Shown here: positions 2 to 61,768 of the stretch, in pieces | Layout: every line of letters starts with the position of its first letter | Position numbering within the stretch: position 1 is the first letter of the stretch | Source of the DNA: an uncultured Pseudomonadota bacterium | Lineage (GTDB): Bacteria; Pseudomonadota; Alphaproteobacteria; RF32; CAG-239 | Direction: 5' to 3' | Length of the DNA: 61,819 nt | Assembly (NCBI GenBank): GCA_949300375.1 | Contig: CASGEB010000009.1 | Location: 1-61,819, forward strand | The notes under the pieces: model-generated | Database searches by the model: none | What the model was told of the DNA's origin: nothing | Seen by the model: the letters and a program-made list of their open reading frames with translations, nothing else | Position numbers and translations under genes: made by a program

Positions 2-562
2 TATTCCAGCGAAACCGGATGTTCCTGCGGAACTTATTCCTGCTCTGACGGCTGCGGCGGAACAAGAAAATGTTGTTCTTCCTGTCCCGACCCCGAACCA
101 GAGCCGGATCCTACGCCAAGCTGCACGCATTCAACCCACAAAAGCTGCTCTTACGGCTGCGCATCTTATTGCCCTTGTTGTTCCGCCTGCAAAACCTGCA
201 AATCCGCTCCGCCTATTGAGGACGATGATGAAGAGGATACCACGCCTGTCGACCCCTGCGCCGGCGTATCCTGCCCAACAGCAAAAACTTGCTCTAACGG
301 TTGTGCAAGCAGTTCAACTGCTACAAGCTGCTGCCCGTCCGTATGCACTTCGTGCAAACCATGTTACATATGCTATGGGACTTGTTATGATGAACCTATG
401 TCTGAATGTGCCGGTTCTTGCTACCCGAGTGGCTGGTCTTGCATTGACTATCCGGAATGGGAAGATCCCAGCTCTCCTGGGGCTGGAAACGCCACTTGGT
501 ATTATTGCGCCTGTCCGCCCGGATATAAAAATATGAGCGATTGCAGTTGTTCTCTGCAATAA
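2..562 (+). CDS. Cysteine-rich protein, 3' part (5' end outside the window)
   Basis: My own translation of frame +2 (not in the ORF track because it has no start codon): YSSETGCSCGTYSCSDGCGG...CPDPEPEPDPTPSC...EDDDEED...WYYCACPPGYKNMSDCSCSLQ*. It is open for 186 codons with 33 Cys and stops at TAA 560-562. Confidence 0.85.
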   Translation, partial: YSSETGCSCGTYSCSDGCGGTRKCCSSCPDPEPEPDPTPSCTHSTHKSCSYGCASYCPCCSACKTCKSAPPIEDDDEEDTTPVDPCAGVSCPTAKTCSNGCASSSTATSCCPSVCTSCKPCYICYGTCYDEPMSECAGSCYPSGWSCIDYPEWEDPSSPGAGNATWYYCACPPGYKNMSDCSCSLQ

Positions 563-4814: not shown

Positions 4815-4849
4815 CTATAAACCGTTTGTTATTTATAATAATTTTTTTT

Positions 4850-5255
4850 TAAACCATCGTAAAACCGCTCTAATCTTTCCTCTTTTAGTCTGCTTTTAGA
4901 GAGATAGACAAAGTGGTTTCTAGATGTGAGAAAAATTTTAGTGTACACAGAAGTACATGAATTTTTCGAACCATCGTAAAACCGCTTTAGATACCCTATA
5001 AAAGCGGACTAATAATTTTGTTTTAGAGGAGCAGATAAAGTAATTTTTGAAGGCGAAAAAAATTCTAGTGTACACAAAAGTACATGAATTTTTTGAGACC
5101 GAGCAAAATTGCTCTACGCTTTCCTCTTTTAGTCTGCTTTTAGAGAGATAGATAAAGTGGTTTCTAGATGTGAGAAAAATTTTAGTGTACACAGAAGTAC
5201 ATGAATTTTTCGAACCATCGTAAAACCGCTTTAGATACTCTATAAAAGCGGACTA
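4850..5255. repeat. Array of ~125-bp imperfect palindromes (RPE-like miniature elements)
   Basis: Near-identical direct repeats at 4875-5011 and 5119-5255 (2 mismatches). Each has ends tagtctgctttta/taaaagcggacta and a central gtgtac-acagaa-gtacatga. A diverged unit lies at ~5020-5127 and a partial unit at ~4850-4885. Confidence 0.85.
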
Positions 5256-8504: not shown

Positions 8505-8567
8505 TAGCCAAAATCCTCCCCCTGTTTTTCAATAATGCTTGACACACAAGCTTTGCTGTGTTATAGT
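8505..8567 (+). promoter_or_regulatory. Conserved cassette promoter, copy 1 (sigma70-like plus upstream boxes)
   Basis: GCCAAAAT at 8507, TTTTCA at 8526, TTGACA 8539-8544, 17-bp spacer, TATAGT 8562-8567. Confidence 0.8.
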
Positions 8568-8636
8568 AATCTTGATGTTGTTCCGAGGAGTTGTTTCGGA
8601 GCGGCATCCACATCTCCTGCTGTCTCCGGATGTTTT

Positions 8637-8980
8637 GTTTTAATGGTCATCCTCGGGCGGCTGGTTTTAATGGTCATCCCCGGGCGGCTGGTTACTTTAC
8701 GGTCATCCCCGGGCTTGACCCGGGGATCCACAGGCAACGGCAGGGGTTGTGAATAACATAACACCCGTCATTGCCGGACTTGCCCTGCTCGGCAGAGTTG
8801 GTGAATGGCAAAGGACTTTAAAAGCATTGTCATCCTCGGGGCGGCTTGTTTTAATTGTCATCCCCGGGCTGCGACCCGGGGATCCAAATGAACAATAAAG
8901 CCTTATGATTGACCTGGATTCTCGGATCACACCCTCAGGGTGACGCCAAGTGGATTGCCGGGTCAAGCCCGGCAATGACA
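8637..8980. repeat. Cluster of GTCAT...ATCCA REP-like palindromes and half-units in the cassette leader
   Basis: Full units at 8702-8730, 8857-8886 and inverted 8951-8980; variant at 8915-8946; 27-bp tandem half-units gttttaatggtcatcc[t/c]cgggcggctg at 8637-8690. Confidence 0.85.
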
Positions 8981-9015
8981 TAAGAAAAGAATTTTTATAA
9001 GGGAGGAGACCGAAA

Positions 9016-10512
9016 ATGAAAAACACTATGCTACACATGAAACTAAACGCTGCGGTGTCGGTATTTTCCATCGCCGCCGCTTTCTCGGTCTTTCTCCCAG
9101 CCTCTAATGCCTATGGTGGAATCTGTTTCTTGCCCGACTGTAATTTAGACTTACCATCATATGACGATGTCAACTCAGATTCTTCCTGGTGTCTGGACAA
9201 CGGTTATTACTTCTCTTGTCCGGACGGAACCTCTCCTGATTATTCTCAAACCTGCCCGCGTGATGAGAGTTATACCAAATGTTCTGCCGAACAATGGTGC
9301 AAAGACCAAGGATATGACAAAACAGAAGAATATTGCCGAAGTTTGGGAGACACCTGGTATGCCGACAAGGACACCAAATGTCCGAATGGTCAGAATTTAT
9401 ATAAAGAATGTGTCGAAGACACCGCCCAGGCCTGTGAGGACAAAGGTTATGTCAACAACTGTTCCCGTCCCGACAAGACCGAACTCTGCGAATGGAACTC
9501 TTCCTTTGCAAAATGCTGCAACGACACCGAATCAAACGGATGTCCCGAGAACTCGAAAGTTTCCGGCTGTGAAAACGGCACGATTGTCGGACAGGACACC
9601 TGCGGTTATGACTGTCATCAATGTTGTCAAACCTCCTGTCCGGCCGGTTATGCCTATACCGATGAACAAACTTCCGGCGGCACAAGCGGATATATCAAAG
9701 ACGGGGATGATTACTGTCTGCATTGCACGCGCGGAAAACTATATAAACGGAAAGAAAACCCCTGCACCGGTTATGACCTCTGCTCCGGTTATGGCGGGGT
9801 TGATAACGGGGACTATTGCTACACAGGTAACACAAAAAAATACTCAAAATGCCGCGAAGAATGTTTGCCGGGATATATTGAATGGTGCGACGCGCCGATA
9901 ACCGATTGCGAAAAGTTGGGATACAAAAAAACAGTTTCTCAATGCAACGGAAAATTTTCTTTCACCTGTCCGTTTAACAAAGACAAAGTTTTCTGCGCGG
10001 ATGATTGCAGCTATACTTTCACGGCATCTGACTGTGCCAGCCAAAACAAAAATATTGGTTCACAATCATGCACTCGAAACGGGACAACCTATTATGCCTC
10101 TTGTGGAACGACTTGCACAAACGGAAACTGTACATCCACACCTTCACAATCAGAATGCAACTACGTCTATTTGGCGTCAGATTGCGCCAACCAATGCAAA
10201 GATGTTGGGAGCAAATCATGTACCCGTGATGGAAAAACTTACTATGAAAGCTGTGGCAACACCAAATGTGCTGAAGACAAGCTCTGCAATGATAAAGGAA
10301 GCTGTATTACGCCATGGTACGGATATTGCTGCGATGATGTAGGATCCTGTGATACAACATTTTGCAAAGCATATAATTATCCGGATTGCAGCGATGTCAT
10401 AAACAGCTGTAAAAGCTTGGGAAGAACACCGAAATTTGACCGCTGTACCCAATCAGCCTCTGCTCATGTTGCAATATATACATGTGAAAAAGAATACCAA
10501 TGCTACATCTAA
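9016..10512 (+). CDS. Secreted cysteine-rich modular protein (long N-region + A + B + B + C modules)
   Basis: RBS gggagg at 9001; hydrophobic signal peptide ending ASNAYG; dense Cys; paralogue of 41518-42777. Confidence 0.9.
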   Translation: MKNTMLHMKLNAAVSVFSIAAAFSVFLPASNAYGGICFLPDCNLDLPSYDDVNSDSSWCLDNGYYFSCPDGTSPDYSQTCPRDESYTKCSAEQWCKDQGYDKTEEYCRSLGDTWYADKDTKCPNGQNLYKECVEDTAQACEDKGYVNNCSRPDKTELCEWNSSFAKCCNDTESNGCPENSKVSGCENGTIVGQDTCGYDCHQCCQTSCPAGYAYTDEQTSGGTSGYIKDGDDYCLHCTRGKLYKRKENPCTGYDLCSGYGGVDNGDYCYTGNTKKYSKCREECLPGYIEWCDAPITDCEKLGYKKTVSQCNGKFSFTCPFNKDKVFCADDCSYTFTASDCASQNKNIGSQSCTRNGTTYYASCGTTCTNGNCTSTPSQSECNYVYLASDCANQCKDVGSKSCTRDGKTYYESCGNTKCAEDKLCNDKGSCITPWYGYCCDDVGSCDTTFCKAYNYPDCSDVINSCKSLGRTPKFDRCTQSASAHVAIYTCEKEYQCYI

Positions 10513-10537
10513 ACCGGCATTCTATGGGAGAAAGATA

Positions 10538-11059
10538 ATGAAAAAAGACTTATTATCAGCTGCTATCGCTATATTAACCGTCACAACGGCTTCTAATGTC
10601 CGTGCAGCTTGTACTTCTACTCCGGACTGCAAATCTATGGGATACATTTACACTGTTGAAGAATGTTCCGGAAGTTATATAGCCTGCCCTTTTGATACCT
10701 CTAAAGTCTTTTGCTTTGACCCTTGTCTGTATACACTAAAGGCAGATAATTGCCCGGCATCACAAGGAAAAAGACCGGGTACACAATCTTGTATCAGAGG
10801 AGGAACAGTTTACTACGCAAATTGTGAAAATCTTTGTGATACTTTTGAAACCTATATTAATGGAACCTGTGTCCCAACAGTCTGCTGTGACAACACCAGT
10901 ACGTCAGAATATATTGATTCCGGCCTCTCCCTTTGTCGTAACACCTATAATTATCCGGACTGTACTTACCTTTTTGCCAGCTGCCGCAATGCTGGAGGAA
11001 CTGTTAAATACAATCACTGTATGCACCCTGGAATGGCCTCATTTAATTGTGAAAAATAA
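10538..11059 (+). CDS. Secreted cysteine-rich protein (A + B + divergent C)
   Basis: Start revised to MKKDLL (RBS gggag); signal peptide ending SNVRA; CTSTPDCKSMGY...ACPFD module; YPDC. Confidence 0.88.
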   Translation: MKKDLLSAAIAILTVTTASNVRAACTSTPDCKSMGYIYTVEECSGSYIACPFDTSKVFCFDPCLYTLKADNCPASQGKRPGTQSCIRGGTVYYANCENLCDTFETYINGTCVPTVCCDNTSTSEYIDSGLSLCRNTYNYPDCTYLFASCRNAGGTVKYNHCMHPGMASFNCEK

Positions 11060-11084
11060 CTTATATACTAAAGGGAATAAAAAA

Positions 11085-11831
11085 ATGAAAAAAGGATTAC
11101 TATTAGGCTCTGTCGGAATATTAACCATTCTCGGAAACACAAAAATCCAAGCCGGATGCATTCCGACTAACGATTGTTCTTCTTTAGGATACAAATACAC
11201 TAAAGATGAATGTTCTGGGCAAGGGATTGCCTGCCCCTTCGACGCTGCCAAATATAATTGCGAAAACCCGTGTACATACAAGGTGAGCCTTTCCGACTGT
11301 TCATCCAAATGTTTAAATAATGGTACAAAATCATGCACAAGAAACGGAACAACCTACTACGAATCTTGTGGCGTTTCCAAATGTTCCAGCGGATATGAAT
11401 GTCAAAACGGAAAATGCGTAACAGCATGTACCTATACATATTCAGAATATATGTGCAGCCAGGAATGCAAATCGCCGGCCGGACGTTCTTGTACAAGAAA
11501 TGGTATAACGTTCTATGAAAGTTGCGGAAATTACAAATGCCCAAGCGGAAAAAAATGCTACGAGGGCAGTTGCTACACCCCCGTTCCGGTCGGCGAATAC
11601 TGCTGCGGATATGAAAACCAATGCGGATACAGCGGGGGAACAAGCAGTTCTTTCGATAGCAGATGTTACAGCATATACGGACAAAGTTGTTATCAAAAAT
11701 GCAGATCCATGGGATACCCTGATTGCACAGACTGGATACCAAGCTGCTATGCAACGGGAAATTCTCCCCAGAGAAAAGGATGCAGTTCTGACGGAAATGC
11801 AACAAACTATGCTATAAGCTGGTATTGTTAA
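11085..11831 (+). CDS. Secreted cysteine-rich protein (A + B + B + C)
   Basis: Start revised to MKKGLLLG (RBS aaggga); CIPTNDCSSLGY...ACPFD; two SCTRNGxTxYESC repeats; CCGY...YPDC. Confidence 0.9.
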   Translation: MKKGLLLGSVGILTILGNTKIQAGCIPTNDCSSLGYKYTKDECSGQGIACPFDAAKYNCENPCTYKVSLSDCSSKCLNNGTKSCTRNGTTYYESCGVSKCSSGYECQNGKCVTACTYTYSEYMCSQECKSPAGRSCTRNGITFYESCGNYKCPSGKKCYEGSCYTPVPVGEYCCGYENQCGYSGGTSSSFDSRCYSIYGQSCYQKCRSMGYPDCTDWIPSCYATGNSPQRKGCSSDGNATNYAISWYC

Positions 11832-24786: not shown

Positions 24787-25386
24787 TTACTGACATACAT
24801 AATATGCATTGCCAAAATAACCATAGTAACTATCTCCTTCACAAAGCTGGAAAACAGGATTGCGGCCGGAAGCACGGCAGCTTGCATGCATATCGCTGCA
24901 ATCCGGATAACCGCGGTATCTGCATTGTTCATAACAGCTCCGGCCATAGTAGCTTTGACAATAACTGTCATTGGAATTTGAAGTTCCGCCATTATACCCG
25001 CATTCATAAACATATCCGCAACACCAGCCGCTTGCTGAAACAGAAGTAAAACACGTTCCGTTATAACAGCTTTGCCCGCTTGAGCATTTGGAAGAACCGC
25101 AGGAAGCGTAATAAGTTACGCCATTTCTGACGCAGGAGGAAGAGCCTGGGTTTTGGCAGTTAGCGGCGCAGGCCTCGGCGGTGTAGGTGTAATCGCAGGT
25201 CTGCGGGTCGAAACAAAAATATTTTGTTGTGTCAAACGGACATTTAACCCCGTCGTTCGGGCATTCATCGGCGGTATATTTATAACCCATTGCCTCACAG
25301 TCCGGGGTCTGGGTGCAGGCCGCTAAGACATAACCGGATGCAAGAGCGGTACAGCACAAGGCGCTCCAAAAAATATATTGTTTCAT
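24787..25386 (-). CDS. Secreted cysteine-rich protein (A + B + C)
   Basis: Start revised to MKQYIFW (RBS gggagagg); CTQTPDCEAMGY...KCPFD; SCVRNGVTYYASC; CCGY...GRSCYEQC...YPDC...YVCQ*. Confidence 0.9.
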   Translation of the reverse strand: MKQYIFWSALCCTALASGYVLAACTQTPDCEAMGYKYTADECPNDGVKCPFDTTKYFCFDPQTCDYTYTAEACAANCQNPGSSSCVRNGVTYYASCGSSKCSSGQSCYNGTCFTSVSASGWCCGYVYECGYNGGTSNSNDSYCQSYYGRSCYEQCRYRGYPDCSDMHASCRASGRNPVFQLCEGDSYYGYFGNAYYVCQ

Positions 25387-25420: not shown

Positions 25421-25482
25421 ACTATACCACACCTCAAACGAATAGTCAATATATAATGAAAAGTATGACGGGGATTTTGGCC
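25421..25482 (-). promoter_or_regulatory. Conserved cassette promoter, copy 2
   Basis: Minus strand: GCCAAAAT from 25481, TTTTCATTA, TTGACT 25449-25444, 17-bp spacer, TATAGT 25426-25421. Confidence 0.78.
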
Positions 25483-41140: not shown

Positions 41141-41171
41141 AATCCCCGTTCTCCCGAACGGGGATTTCTTT
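41141..41171 (+). terminator. topA terminator
   Basis: aatccccgtt-ctcccg-aacggggatt followed by tcttt. Confidence 0.75.
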
Positions 41172-41177
41172 ATCTTC

Positions 41178-41240
41178 TAGCCAAAATACCACTCCAACTT
41201 TTCATTAATCATTGACACTGGCGTTTTGTTGTGGTATAGT
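41178..41240 (+). promoter_or_regulatory. Conserved cassette promoter, copy 3
   Basis: GCCAAAAT at 41180, TTTTCA at 41199, TTGACA 41212-41217, 17-bp spacer, TATAGT 41235-41240. Confidence 0.8.
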
Positions 41241-41307: not shown

Positions 41308-41517
41308 CCTGCACGGCAGGCGCGCGGCGAGTTGAATGCACTGAGCTCAAGAGACCGCGATGCTATGACGGGGTTTGGAATGACAAAAGAAGAAAAGAAT
41401 TTTTATTAACTATTCCGGGCACGATGTTGTTCGGAAAAAAGAAAAGAGCAACGCGAAAGCTTTGGCACGATGATGACAAATGATCGGGTCAAGCACGTTT
41501 GCTTGGGGAGGAGACCG

Positions 41518-42777
41518 ATGAGAAATTATAACACTATGCTACACATGAAACTAAACGCTGCGGTGTCGGTATTTTCTATCGCCGCTGCTTTCTCGGTCTT
41601 CCTCCCGCCCTCTAATGCCTATGGAGGAGTCTGTTTTTTGCCTGACTGTAATCTGGACGGCACCTCTTTTGATGACGTCAACTCCGATTCTTCCTGGTGT
41701 ATTGATAATGGCTACTATTTCACCTGTCCCGAAGGCACGGCTCCTGATTATTCTCAGACCTGCCCGCGTGACGAGAGCTACACCAAATGTTCCTCCGAGC
41801 AATGGTGCATTGACAACGGTTACACCAAAACCGCTCAATCCTGTTATGACCTCGGGCCGACCTGGTTCCCGCAAAACCTCTGTCCAAAAGGCTTTGACCT
41901 CTACAAATCCTGTGTCGAAGACACCGCTCAGGCCTGTGAGGACAAAGGCTATGTCAACAACTGTTCCCGTCCCGACAAGACCGAGATTTGTGAATGGGAT
42001 TCTTCTTTTGCCAAATGCTGCAACGATACCGAATCAAACGGATGTCCCGAGAACTCGAAAGTCTCAGGCTGTGAAGACGGCACGATTGTCGGACAGGACA
42101 CCTGCGGTTATGACTGTCATCAATGTTGTCAGACCTCCTGTCCGGCCGGTTATGCCTATACCGATGAAGAAACCTCCGGCGGCACGAGCGGATATATCAA
42201 AGACATGGCGAATGAAGACGATTACTGTCTGCACTGCACACGCGGCAAACTGTATAAACGGAAAGAAAACCCCTGTACCGGTTATGACCTCTGTTCGACT
42301 TATGGCGGGGTTGATAACGGGGATTATTGTTATACGGGGAATACGAAGAAATATTCGAAATGTCTGACCGAATGCCGGCCGGGATATATAGAATGGTGCG
42401 ACACGCCGGTCACCGATTGTGAGAAACTGGGCTATACGCAGACGGCGGCGGAATGTGCGAACGTGCCGGCTGTCGCCTGCCCGTTCAACGGGGATAAGTG
42501 GTATTGTAAAGATTACAGCAATGTCCCGACGAGCGGGCGCTGTTGCGGATATATTAACGATTGCGGATACAACGGAGAAACATCAAGTTCTTATGATTCT
42601 AATTGTCAAAGTTATTATGGCAGAAGTTGTTATGAACAGTGCAAGAGTTATGGATTCCCTGATTGTCCTGATATGCAGGCGAGCTGTCGAGCCTCAGGCG
42701 GTACCCCGGTCTTCGATGGTTGCAACTACGACGGCTACCCCACCAACGACTACCTCGCCTACTTCCTCTGCCAGTAG
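41518..42777 (+). CDS. Secreted cysteine-rich modular protein (long N-region + A + C)
   Basis: RBS ggggaggag; signal peptide nearly identical to that of the 9016 gene; C-module CCGY...GRSCYEQC...PDC...FLCQ*. Confidence 0.9.
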   Translation: MRNYNTMLHMKLNAAVSVFSIAAAFSVFLPPSNAYGGVCFLPDCNLDGTSFDDVNSDSSWCIDNGYYFTCPEGTAPDYSQTCPRDESYTKCSSEQWCIDNGYTKTAQSCYDLGPTWFPQNLCPKGFDLYKSCVEDTAQACEDKGYVNNCSRPDKTEICEWDSSFAKCCNDTESNGCPENSKVSGCEDGTIVGQDTCGYDCHQCCQTSCPAGYAYTDEETSGGTSGYIKDMANEDDYCLHCTRGKLYKRKENPCTGYDLCSTYGGVDNGDYCYTGNTKKYSKCLTECRPGYIEWCDTPVTDCEKLGYTQTAAECANVPAVACPFNGDKWYCKDYSNVPTSGRCCGYINDCGYNGETSSSYDSNCQSYYGRSCYEQCKSYGFPDCPDMQASCRASGGTPVFDGCNYDGYPTNDYLAYFLCQ

Positions 42778-42788
42778 TCGTCTCTGCC

Positions 42789-43019
42789 TGTCATTGCCGG
42801 GGGATTTCTTCTTTTGTCATTCTCGGGCTGCGACCCGAGAATCCAGATAAAAAAGAAGCCATATGATTGACCTGGATCCCCGGGTCAAGCCCGGGGATGA
42901 CAAATAAAAAAAAAGAGCCCGGGGATGAAGAAAGAAAAAAGAGAACCAGGGGCTGAAAAAATAAAAAGGTGCTTAGGAATGACAAATAAAAAAGTGCTTG
43001 GGATAACAGAATAGAAAAC
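42789..43019. repeat. Inverted REP doublet plus tandem degenerate half-units
   Basis: Full units at 42816-42845 and inverted 42873-42902; half-units start at 42789, 42917, 42945, 42971 and 42996. Confidence 0.8.
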
Positions 43020-43042: not shown

Positions 43043-43483
43043 ATGAGAAAAGGAATGTTGATAACCGTGGCGGGGATGGCTTTGTTAGCCGGAACTGCCG
43101 ATGTCCGGGCCGCTTGTATTCCGACGCAGGACTGCGCCAGCCTCGGCTATAAATACACCGCCGCACAATGCCCCGACGGCGCCATCGCCTGCCCCGATGA
43201 CAGCGGCTCCACCACCCCAGACCCGGCTCCTTCCGTCCCGACAAGCGGATATTGCTGCGGGTATACGACTTATTGCGGATATAGTGGAGGAACGTCAAGT
43301 TATAGTGACTCAAGCTGTCGTAGTTATTGGGGTAGAAGTTGTTATGAACAATGCAAGAGTTATGGATACCCTGATTGTACTGATATGCACGCCCGTTGTC
43401 GAGCCTCCGGCGGTACCCCGGTCTTCCAGGGTTGCACCAAGGGCTACAACACCAACTTCGTCGCCCTCTTCGCGTGCCAGTAG
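43043..43483 (+). CDS. Secreted cysteine-rich protein (truncated A + Pro/Thr linker + C)
   Basis: RBS aaggag; signal peptide ending ADVRA; CIPTQDCASLGY; C-module ending FACQ*. Confidence 0.9.
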   Translation: MRKGMLITVAGMALLAGTADVRAACIPTQDCASLGYKYTAAQCPDGAIACPDDSGSTTPDPAPSVPTSGYCCGYTTYCGYSGGTSSYSDSSCRSYWGRSCYEQCKSYGYPDCTDMHARCRASGGTPVFQGCTKGYNTNFVALFACQ

Positions 43484-43495
43484 TCGTCTCTGCCT

Positions 43496-43525
43496 GTCAT
43501 TGCCGGGCTGCGACCCGGCAATCCA
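43496..43525. repeat. REP-like palindrome
   Basis: gtcattgccgggctgcgacccggcaatcca. Confidence 0.85.
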
Positions 43526-61705: not shown

Positions 61706-61768
61706 TAGCCAAAATCCCCGTTACACTTTTCATTAAGCATTGACACGGGCGTTTTGTTATGGTATAGT
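61706..61768 (+). promoter_or_regulatory. Conserved cassette promoter, copy 4 (downstream gene outside the window)
   Basis: GCCAAAAT at 61708, TTTTCA at 61727, TTGACA 61740-61745, 17-bp spacer, TATAGT 61763-61768. Confidence 0.8.

Follow-up and report, generated by a model that had tools for sequence, protein, structure and literature searches.

What do two short, invariantly spaced boxes upstream of a near-consensus promoter do in front of the cysteine-rich genes of an uncultured gut alphaproteobacterium: do they place these genes under a common input, or do they mark the end of a mobile cassette? The question arises from the window, by which we mean the whole stretch of 61,819 nucleotides analysed here. 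It corresponds to contig C9 of a MAG (G000) of 1.64 Mb in 57 contigs with a G+C content of 44.6%, the assembly of which lacks a 16S rRNA gene. Contigs from two chicken-gut runs (X1 and X2, with shares of 0.10 and 0.06, both probably DNA) are 90–95% like the window. The promoter copies and their associated features are as follows.

8505–8567, plus strand: promoter copy 1, with TA at 8505–8506, box 1 (GCCAAAAT) at 8507–8514, box 2 (TTTTCAATA) at 8526–8534, the −35 TTGACA at 8539–8544, TG at 8559–8560 and the −10 TATAGT at 8562–8567
8568–9015, plus strand: leader of copy 1, with a predicted 15-bp 5′ hairpin at 8574–8608 and 27-nt tandem units at 8637–8714
8702–8731, 8857–8886 and 8950–8979, plus strand, in the same leader: REP-like hairpins
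25421–25481, minus strand: promoter copy 2, of subtype B, with TTGACT as its −35
41180–41240, plus strand: promoter copy 3, directly 3′ of the topA terminator hairpin (41141–41166)
61708–61768, plus strand: promoter copy 4, whose leader is cut by the contig end at 61819

The sequence-only reading had described a promoter/operator in four copies with invariant spacing. All four are present, at 8507–8567(+), 25481–25421(−), 41180–41240(+) and 61708–61768(+), each with 0 mismatches to the 61-nt pattern, and the distances are exact: GCCAAAAT and TTTTCAWTA begin 32 bp and 13 bp, respectively, ahead of TTGACW, and a 17-bp spacer ending in TGT or TGG leads to TATAGT. None of 100 dinucleotide shuffles of the window contained a match, so none is expected by chance. 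In a consensus scan copies 1–3 are each the top sigma-70-like site of their own region, with 10–11 of the 12 hexamer positions plus the TG. These scanned copies thus have hexamers near TTGACA and TATAAT within the 16–18 bp separation of sigma-70-type promoters, and copy 4 has the same core. Scans of the window against Rfam (at the gathering threshold) and for tRNAs gave no matches.

Four is the correct count for the window; as a description of the element it is an undercount imposed by the window's limits. With 3 mismatches to the pattern allowed, the whole genome contains 38 copies, against 0 for a reversed-pattern control; a fourth mismatch raises the count to 39. The exact core alone, TTGACW-N14-TGnTATAGT, occurs 38 times, with box 1 in 37/38 and box 2 in 38/38 of these sites at no more than one mismatch. 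Fifteen of the 39 copies run off a contig end ahead of any gene, family genes reach many other contig ends with their 3′ parts, and the window itself starts and ends inside cassettes. The cysteine-rich family therefore fragments the assembly, accounting for the breaks at about one in four contig ends.

The genes that accompany the promoter copies in the window, and a further member of their family, are listed below.

2–562, plus strand: 3′ part of another cysteine-rich family gene, 186 aa, 17.7% Cys, cut by the contig start
9016–10512, plus strand: first gene of cassette 1, 498 aa, 11.4% Cys, with a signal peptide and no Pfam or NCBIfam family
10466–11059 and 10860–11831 (ATG starts), plus strand: two more cysteine-rich ORFs of cassette 1, neither with its own family promoter
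24787–25386, minus strand: gene of cassette 2, 199 aa, 12.6% Cys, with a lipoprotein-type signal ending LAAC and its ATG 34 nt after the −10
41470–42777, plus strand: first gene of cassette 3 (P0003), a 435-aa ORF, 10.3% Cys
43043–43483, plus strand: second gene of cassette 3, 146 aa, cysteine-rich, without its own promoter, behind a block of REP-like repeats at 42888–43018

The true start of the 41470 ORF may be at 41518 or later, because the N-terminus conserved in alignments of the family begins at residues 17–23. These cassettes lie among housekeeping genes (atpH/priA, topA/ftsW (ftsW/rodA) and beside mraY). The window also contains an intergenic tandem repeat at 4845–5230, with a 117-nt unit in 3.2 copies at 69% matches.

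The motif had been proposed to head the cysteine-rich cassettes and to be missing in front of housekeeping genes, and tabulation of the downstream genes bears this out across the genome. A family gene follows on the same strand in 23/24 judgeable copies, the exception being an orphan on contig C4, and among 172 distinct copies from nine genomes the same holds for 130 of the 135 that could be judged. Conversely, only 2/42 TTGACW-N17-TATA[AG]T sites of the genome lie outside the family, and every family gene with an N-terminus of the form MRNDN.. or MKQYIF.. has a promoter copy no more than 489 nt upstream. Each cassette consists of one to three cysteine-rich genes, the second and third of which have no family promoter of their own. 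Thus, the same conserved DNA lies 5′ of the promoter at the loci of one gene family and not elsewhere, a layout of the erp-operator type. The unit looks like a promoter specific to cysteine-rich cassettes and, as far as sequence can tell, would fit a cis-acting site that defines a single regulon. The orphan (C4:49448(−)) is a degenerate promoter with its leader that runs into a convergent gene, and decayed copies with a broken −35 or −10 are found at C16:9868(+) and at about 1170(+) on C51.

The family proteins contain 10–13% cysteine and have a signal peptide or a lipoprotein signal, as predicted from their sequences. Searches of three of them against Pfam and NCBIfam gave no match, nor did a sequence search of the PDB, and the best score in the ESM Atlas, 0.78, provided no lead. 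All 165 database relatives are unnamed or called hypothetical, none has a Pfam domain, and the sources, where named, are alphaproteobacterial MAGs throughout. The AlphaFold model of P0003, made from a 65-sequence alignment, has a mean pLDDT of 64.7, with residues 70–220 at 82–94; in this region the model predicts repeats of a helix-strand-strand module rich in cysteine pairs that could form disulfides. Foldseek matched the model to no solved fold in the PDB (best E-value 2.8). Searches of titles and abstracts in the open literature gave no paper on this family or its promoter.

Among relatives, the promoter family is narrowly distributed. Pattern matches occur in 6/10 other genomes of the genus, five of which have 22–35 copies each and one of which (G002) has 3, with reversed-pattern controls at 0. 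Of 14 other genera in the same taxonomic family, two have a single match each, and no match was obtained in any of 16 genomes from other taxonomic families. One such lone copy (G019:C30:51–111, L031), the sole copy in that genome of another genus, sits on a 1.3-kb contig, which suggests transfer or mis-binning; together with G001:C9:17519–17579 (L212) it represents a divergent promoter subtype before family genes that are 65–68% identical. The promoter family is present where the gene family has expanded to 36–44 matches. Three complete genomes of the same genus (G003, G004 and G006) have 0–1 core sites and 2–11 weak family matches. Their cysteine-rich genes (L282–L295) mostly lie directly behind another cysteine-rich gene in operon-like arrays, and the short spacers of these arrays, examined in 14 upstream regions, contain a ribosome-binding site and no promoter-like site. 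As judged from unrooted comparisons, the dispersed, promoter-headed layout looks like an innovation of one sub-clade.

Since the full pattern forces its own specified positions, we re-ascertained the copies on the core promoter alone. With the −10 relaxed to TATA[AG]T, 40 core sites of the genome could be judged; box 1 was present with at most one mismatch in 39/40 and box 2 with at most two in 40/40, against a background for both boxes together of 11 in 200,000 random positions. Five congeners gave 142 core-only matches, 129 of which also fit the full pattern by comparison of coordinates. Degenerate boxes at the same spacing were found in 11 of the 12 further matches with readable upstream DNA; the remaining two of these 13 are one cut by a contig end and one unrelated promoter. 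Part of the claimed invariance of spacing is built into this ascertainment because the core pattern fixes the spacer length, and the near-invariant TG before the −10 is likewise built in, as it belongs to the core pattern.

The earlier observation that the boxes are kept and the bases between them vary stands under this core-only ascertainment, both within and across species. In 169 distinct core-ascertained copies from six genomes, which within any one genome are kin homogenised by recombination and not independent events, box 1 has on average 1.73 bits of information per position and box 2 has 1.64 bits, compared to 0.81 and 0.48 bits for the linkers, 0.47 for the 10 nt upstream and 0.23 for the sequence beyond. 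Values of 1.7–1.9 bits are reached by the Cs in either box and by the T that precedes box 1 by two bases (1.9 for the T), which makes the element more base-specific than a plain A/T tract. At two loci orthologous between G000 and G010, no position has changed in box 1 (0/16), the −35 (0/12) or the TG (0/4), whereas 10/20 positions of linker 1 and 8/28 of the spacer have. Relative to the inferred start, box 1 occupies −67 to −60 and is followed by a C-rich linker 1 (about −59 to −50) and then by box 2 and linker 2, both rich in A and T. With the TA on either side included, the boxes read as an imperfect dyad (TA-N3-AAAA-N12-TTTT-N3-TA) whose inner triplets differ and whose centre falls about 54 bp before that start. 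The box 1 8-mer as such is common, with 349 occurrences in the genome; 30 non-coding occurrences outside the core promoters share no context and no promoter context, and at least two of them are decayed family copies.

The leaders downstream of the promoters vary in length and content. Subtype B copies have their start codon 34 nt after the −10, and the other leaders of the genome extend over about 110–450 nt and are filled with REP-like hairpins. The leader of copy 1 (457 nt) folds far better than its shuffles (z = −6), with the 15-bp hairpin at its inferred 5′ end; over 147 leaders, 5′-proximal hairpins are common and of mixed origin (mean −10.5 versus −7.2 kcal/mol). The REP-like hairpins are spread through the genome as a family of about 110 members, with four stem variants that are compensatory and perfectly complementary. 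Their unit has a fixed 5-nt start, an 8–9-bp stem, a 3–4-nt loop and a fixed tail, occurs in both orientations and is also found at 43496–43525. We considered these hairpins as part of the promoter element and rejected this, as only 22/120 lie in leaders on the promoter strand.

The variation between boxes had also been taken to indicate selection rather than recent duplication. The first half of this claim is supported by the diverged linkers and retained boxes, but the opposition is drawn too sharply. The copies of the genome fall into a few near-identical subtypes, which are mosaics put together from an upstream, a spacer and a leader module. Upstream module A, for example, is found with spacer A and with spacer C, and in either case with leader 1 as well as with leader 2. 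Such mosaic combinations show frequent recombination among copies, and the near-identity of the mosaic subtypes indicates that duplication and gene conversion are also at work. At the copy 1 locus, G010 even has a different promoter-leader module before the orthologous gene. The copies spread and swap segments, and the boxes are what survives. The contrast of boxes and linkers is internal to the same copies and so helps the case for selection, short of proof.

Comparison with congeners shows that whole cassettes come and go at fixed intergenic sites. The copy 1 site is filled in G000, G010, G001 and G008 and empty in G007, G004 and G002, where the gaps between the flanking matches are 124, 219 and 487 bp, respectively. 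The copy 3 site is filled in G000, G010 and G009, empty in G007 (72 bp) and occupied by a small unrelated ORF in G001, G008 and G002; only 2/77 relatives with the flank available have a copy after topA. The copy 2 site is colinear in G010, and G007, G009 and G002 have different or longer DNA there; in G008 and G001 its two flanks fall on separate contigs, which break at family genes or a promoter copy. Across the six species in which the boxes persist, the housekeeping flanks are only 78–93% identical at the copy 1 and copy 2 loci and 85–98% at copy 3. The genome also encodes two serine recombinases of about 200 aa (Resolvase), at C5:16631–17212 (L280) and C12:43719–44312 (L281), the latter with an HTH_7 domain; the C5 gene lies directly behind a chloramphenicol acetyltransferase gene (PF00302, E = 1.5e-75). 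Recombinase homologues are missing from G003, G004 and G006, which may simply follow phylogeny.

Such turnover gives some substance to the proposal that the conserved unit is the left end of a mobile cassette, with box 1 a recombinase site rather than a transcriptional element. Homology among copies does start sharply, two bases before box 1, and variable occupancy, the rarity of the copy after topA and the two encoded recombinases all fit. Most of the proposal fails nevertheless. The 3′ flanks of 39 cassettes are heterogeneous and have no common right end, and comparison of filled and empty sites revealed no target duplication and no terminal inverted repeat, so that two defined ends are not seen. 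At the copy 3 locus the acquired DNA starts upstream of box 1 and includes a terminator hairpin, a near-identical version of which (1 base different) follows the last gene of a preceding cassette elsewhere. For the sharp left edge, the functional boundary of a promoter is therefore the better reading. Homologues of the recombinases also occur in three genera without the promoter family. Together with its flanks, box 1 is similar to a half-site of the crossover sites of Hin/Gin-type invertases; the corresponding reading as a serine-recombinase site was dropped, as the boxes are far too widely spaced for it and the recombinase homologues extend to those three genera. What remains of the proposal is the movement of cassettes, and we regard box 1 as a cassette end as extremely unlikely. 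The boxes could instead be functionless passengers of a recently duplicated unit kept uniform by gene conversion. The near-identical copies and mosaic modules would be expected from such a process, but linkers, spacer and leaders have diverged in the very copies in which the boxes have not; moreover, the boxes persist across six species and in divergent subtypes, and they decay in copies that have lost their gene or have a broken core. Hitch-hiking of this kind is very unlikely. Promoter switches, moreover, are typically met in large surface-protein families that have one promoter at each locus (PMC2268961), and an invertible promoter like those of the Mycoplasma penetrans mpl genes, or slippage in a poly-nucleotide spacer, would account for the arrangement. 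However, none of 172 copies is inverted relative to its family gene, in assemblies that show the majority form only, and 32 copies have no recurrent flanking inverted repeat (longest exact repeat 7.25 nt on average, compared to 6.4 nt in shuffles). The spacers listed are free of the long homopolymers that a slippage promoter would have, and all family 5′ ends of the genome have a copy with the fixed 17-bp spacing, so a switch of either type is almost certainly not what these boxes represent. With flanking inverted repeats, inverted copies, a common right end and target duplications all missing, the unit is best described as a family promoter and not as the terminus of a mobile element.

The main rival to a sequence-specific protein is contact by RNA polymerase itself. 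At strong sigma-70 promoters of the UP-element type, of which E. coli rrnB P1 is an example, near-consensus hexamers are combined with A/T tracts upstream of the −35; the UP element is an A/T-rich block at about −40 to −60, and sites contacted by the alpha subunit have A4 or T4 cores. The promoters described here share the near-consensus hexamers and the conserved upstream A/T tracts, and the tracts could be contacted by the alpha C-terminal domains, which would raise promoter strength with no dedicated regulator. Both boxes have an A4 or T4 core, box 2 and linker 2 form an A/T-rich stretch directly upstream of the −35, the core is the closest to consensus in the genome, as selection for sheer strength would produce, and no regulator was found. 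Against this, conservation of the Cs in the boxes and of the flanking T equals that of the tracts. Unlike at rrnB P1-type promoters, the tracts lie within conserved bases other than A or T, are split by a C-rich linker and reach to about −67, and their centres are 16 bp apart, or some 1.5 helical turns, which would place them on opposite faces of the helix. Three tRNA promoter-like sites of the genome lack boxes at this spacing, although with n = 3 this is weak evidence. On balance, we consider a purely UP-like role somewhat unlikely.

The reading that we prefer is that of a common family promoter region with a selected upstream cis-regulatory site, which would probably provide a single input for some 40 cassettes. 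It builds on direct observations of copy number, exclusivity to the family, fixed spacing, position-specific conservation and mosaic recombination; transcription, the start site and a binding partner are what we infer from these. Each cassette would be headed by a near-consensus promoter for the housekeeping sigma factor, with TTGACW as the −35, a 17-bp spacer and an extended −10 of TGnTATAGT, and RNA polymerase would start about 7 nt after TATAGT. The boxes would be a cis-regulatory site under purifying selection, and their retention as a common site is the reason for proposing that the approximately 40 cassettes answer to one input. Two features, the dyad and the conservation of box bases other than A or T to the same degree as the tracts, make a sequence-specific DNA-binding protein, activator or repressor, our preferred candidate for that input, an identification to which we give slightly less than an even chance.

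The layout has a precedent in Borrelia burgdorferi, where all erp operons, which encode OspE/F-related lipoproteins, have a conserved 5′ operator through which BpaB, BpuR and EbfC can switch all loci together (PMC9112904). The likeness is that of a multigene family of surface lipoproteins with the same conserved DNA 5′ of the promoter at every locus. The differences are that the erp loci are on cp32 prophages, whereas the cassettes lie between chromosomal housekeeping genes, and that the erp operator spans about 145 bp with several sites, whereas the conserved part here is about 30 bp; the likeness is one of layout, with none expected in sequence. Of the systems considered here, the erp operator is the closest functional analogue. 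The mpl (P35) family of M. penetrans has 38 lipoprotein genes, most with their own invertible promoter (PMC2268961). It resembles the present family in that the surface-protein genes number in the dozens, are dispersed and are each headed by a copy of the family promoter; the features of inversion described for mpl are absent here, where flanking inverted repeats and copies in the OFF orientation were looked for and not found.

An extension of the preferred reading is that the 30-bp dyad may be the operator of one dedicated master regulator that switches or rations the approximately 40 cassettes, whose products would be cysteine-rich surface proteins of a structurally new class. We put this forward only as a speculation and think it unlikely. 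If true, it would be a bacterial counterpart of the cysteine-rich variant-surface-protein repertoires of gut protists, one that arose within a single genus as operon-bound genes gained a portable promoter and scattered through the chromosome. For the biology of these organisms, the finding means that uncultured gut Alphaproteobacteria with small genomes give the best promoters of the genome to uncharacterised, cysteine-rich proteins predicted to be secreted. The promoter could be used as a genome-wide marker of the family, as a testable operator in the search for a regulator and as a portable strong promoter for the lineage, and the occurrence of operon-chained and dispersed, promoter-headed genes within one genus may serve as a natural experiment on the way in which a gene family turns into a dispersed and possibly variable surface repertoire.
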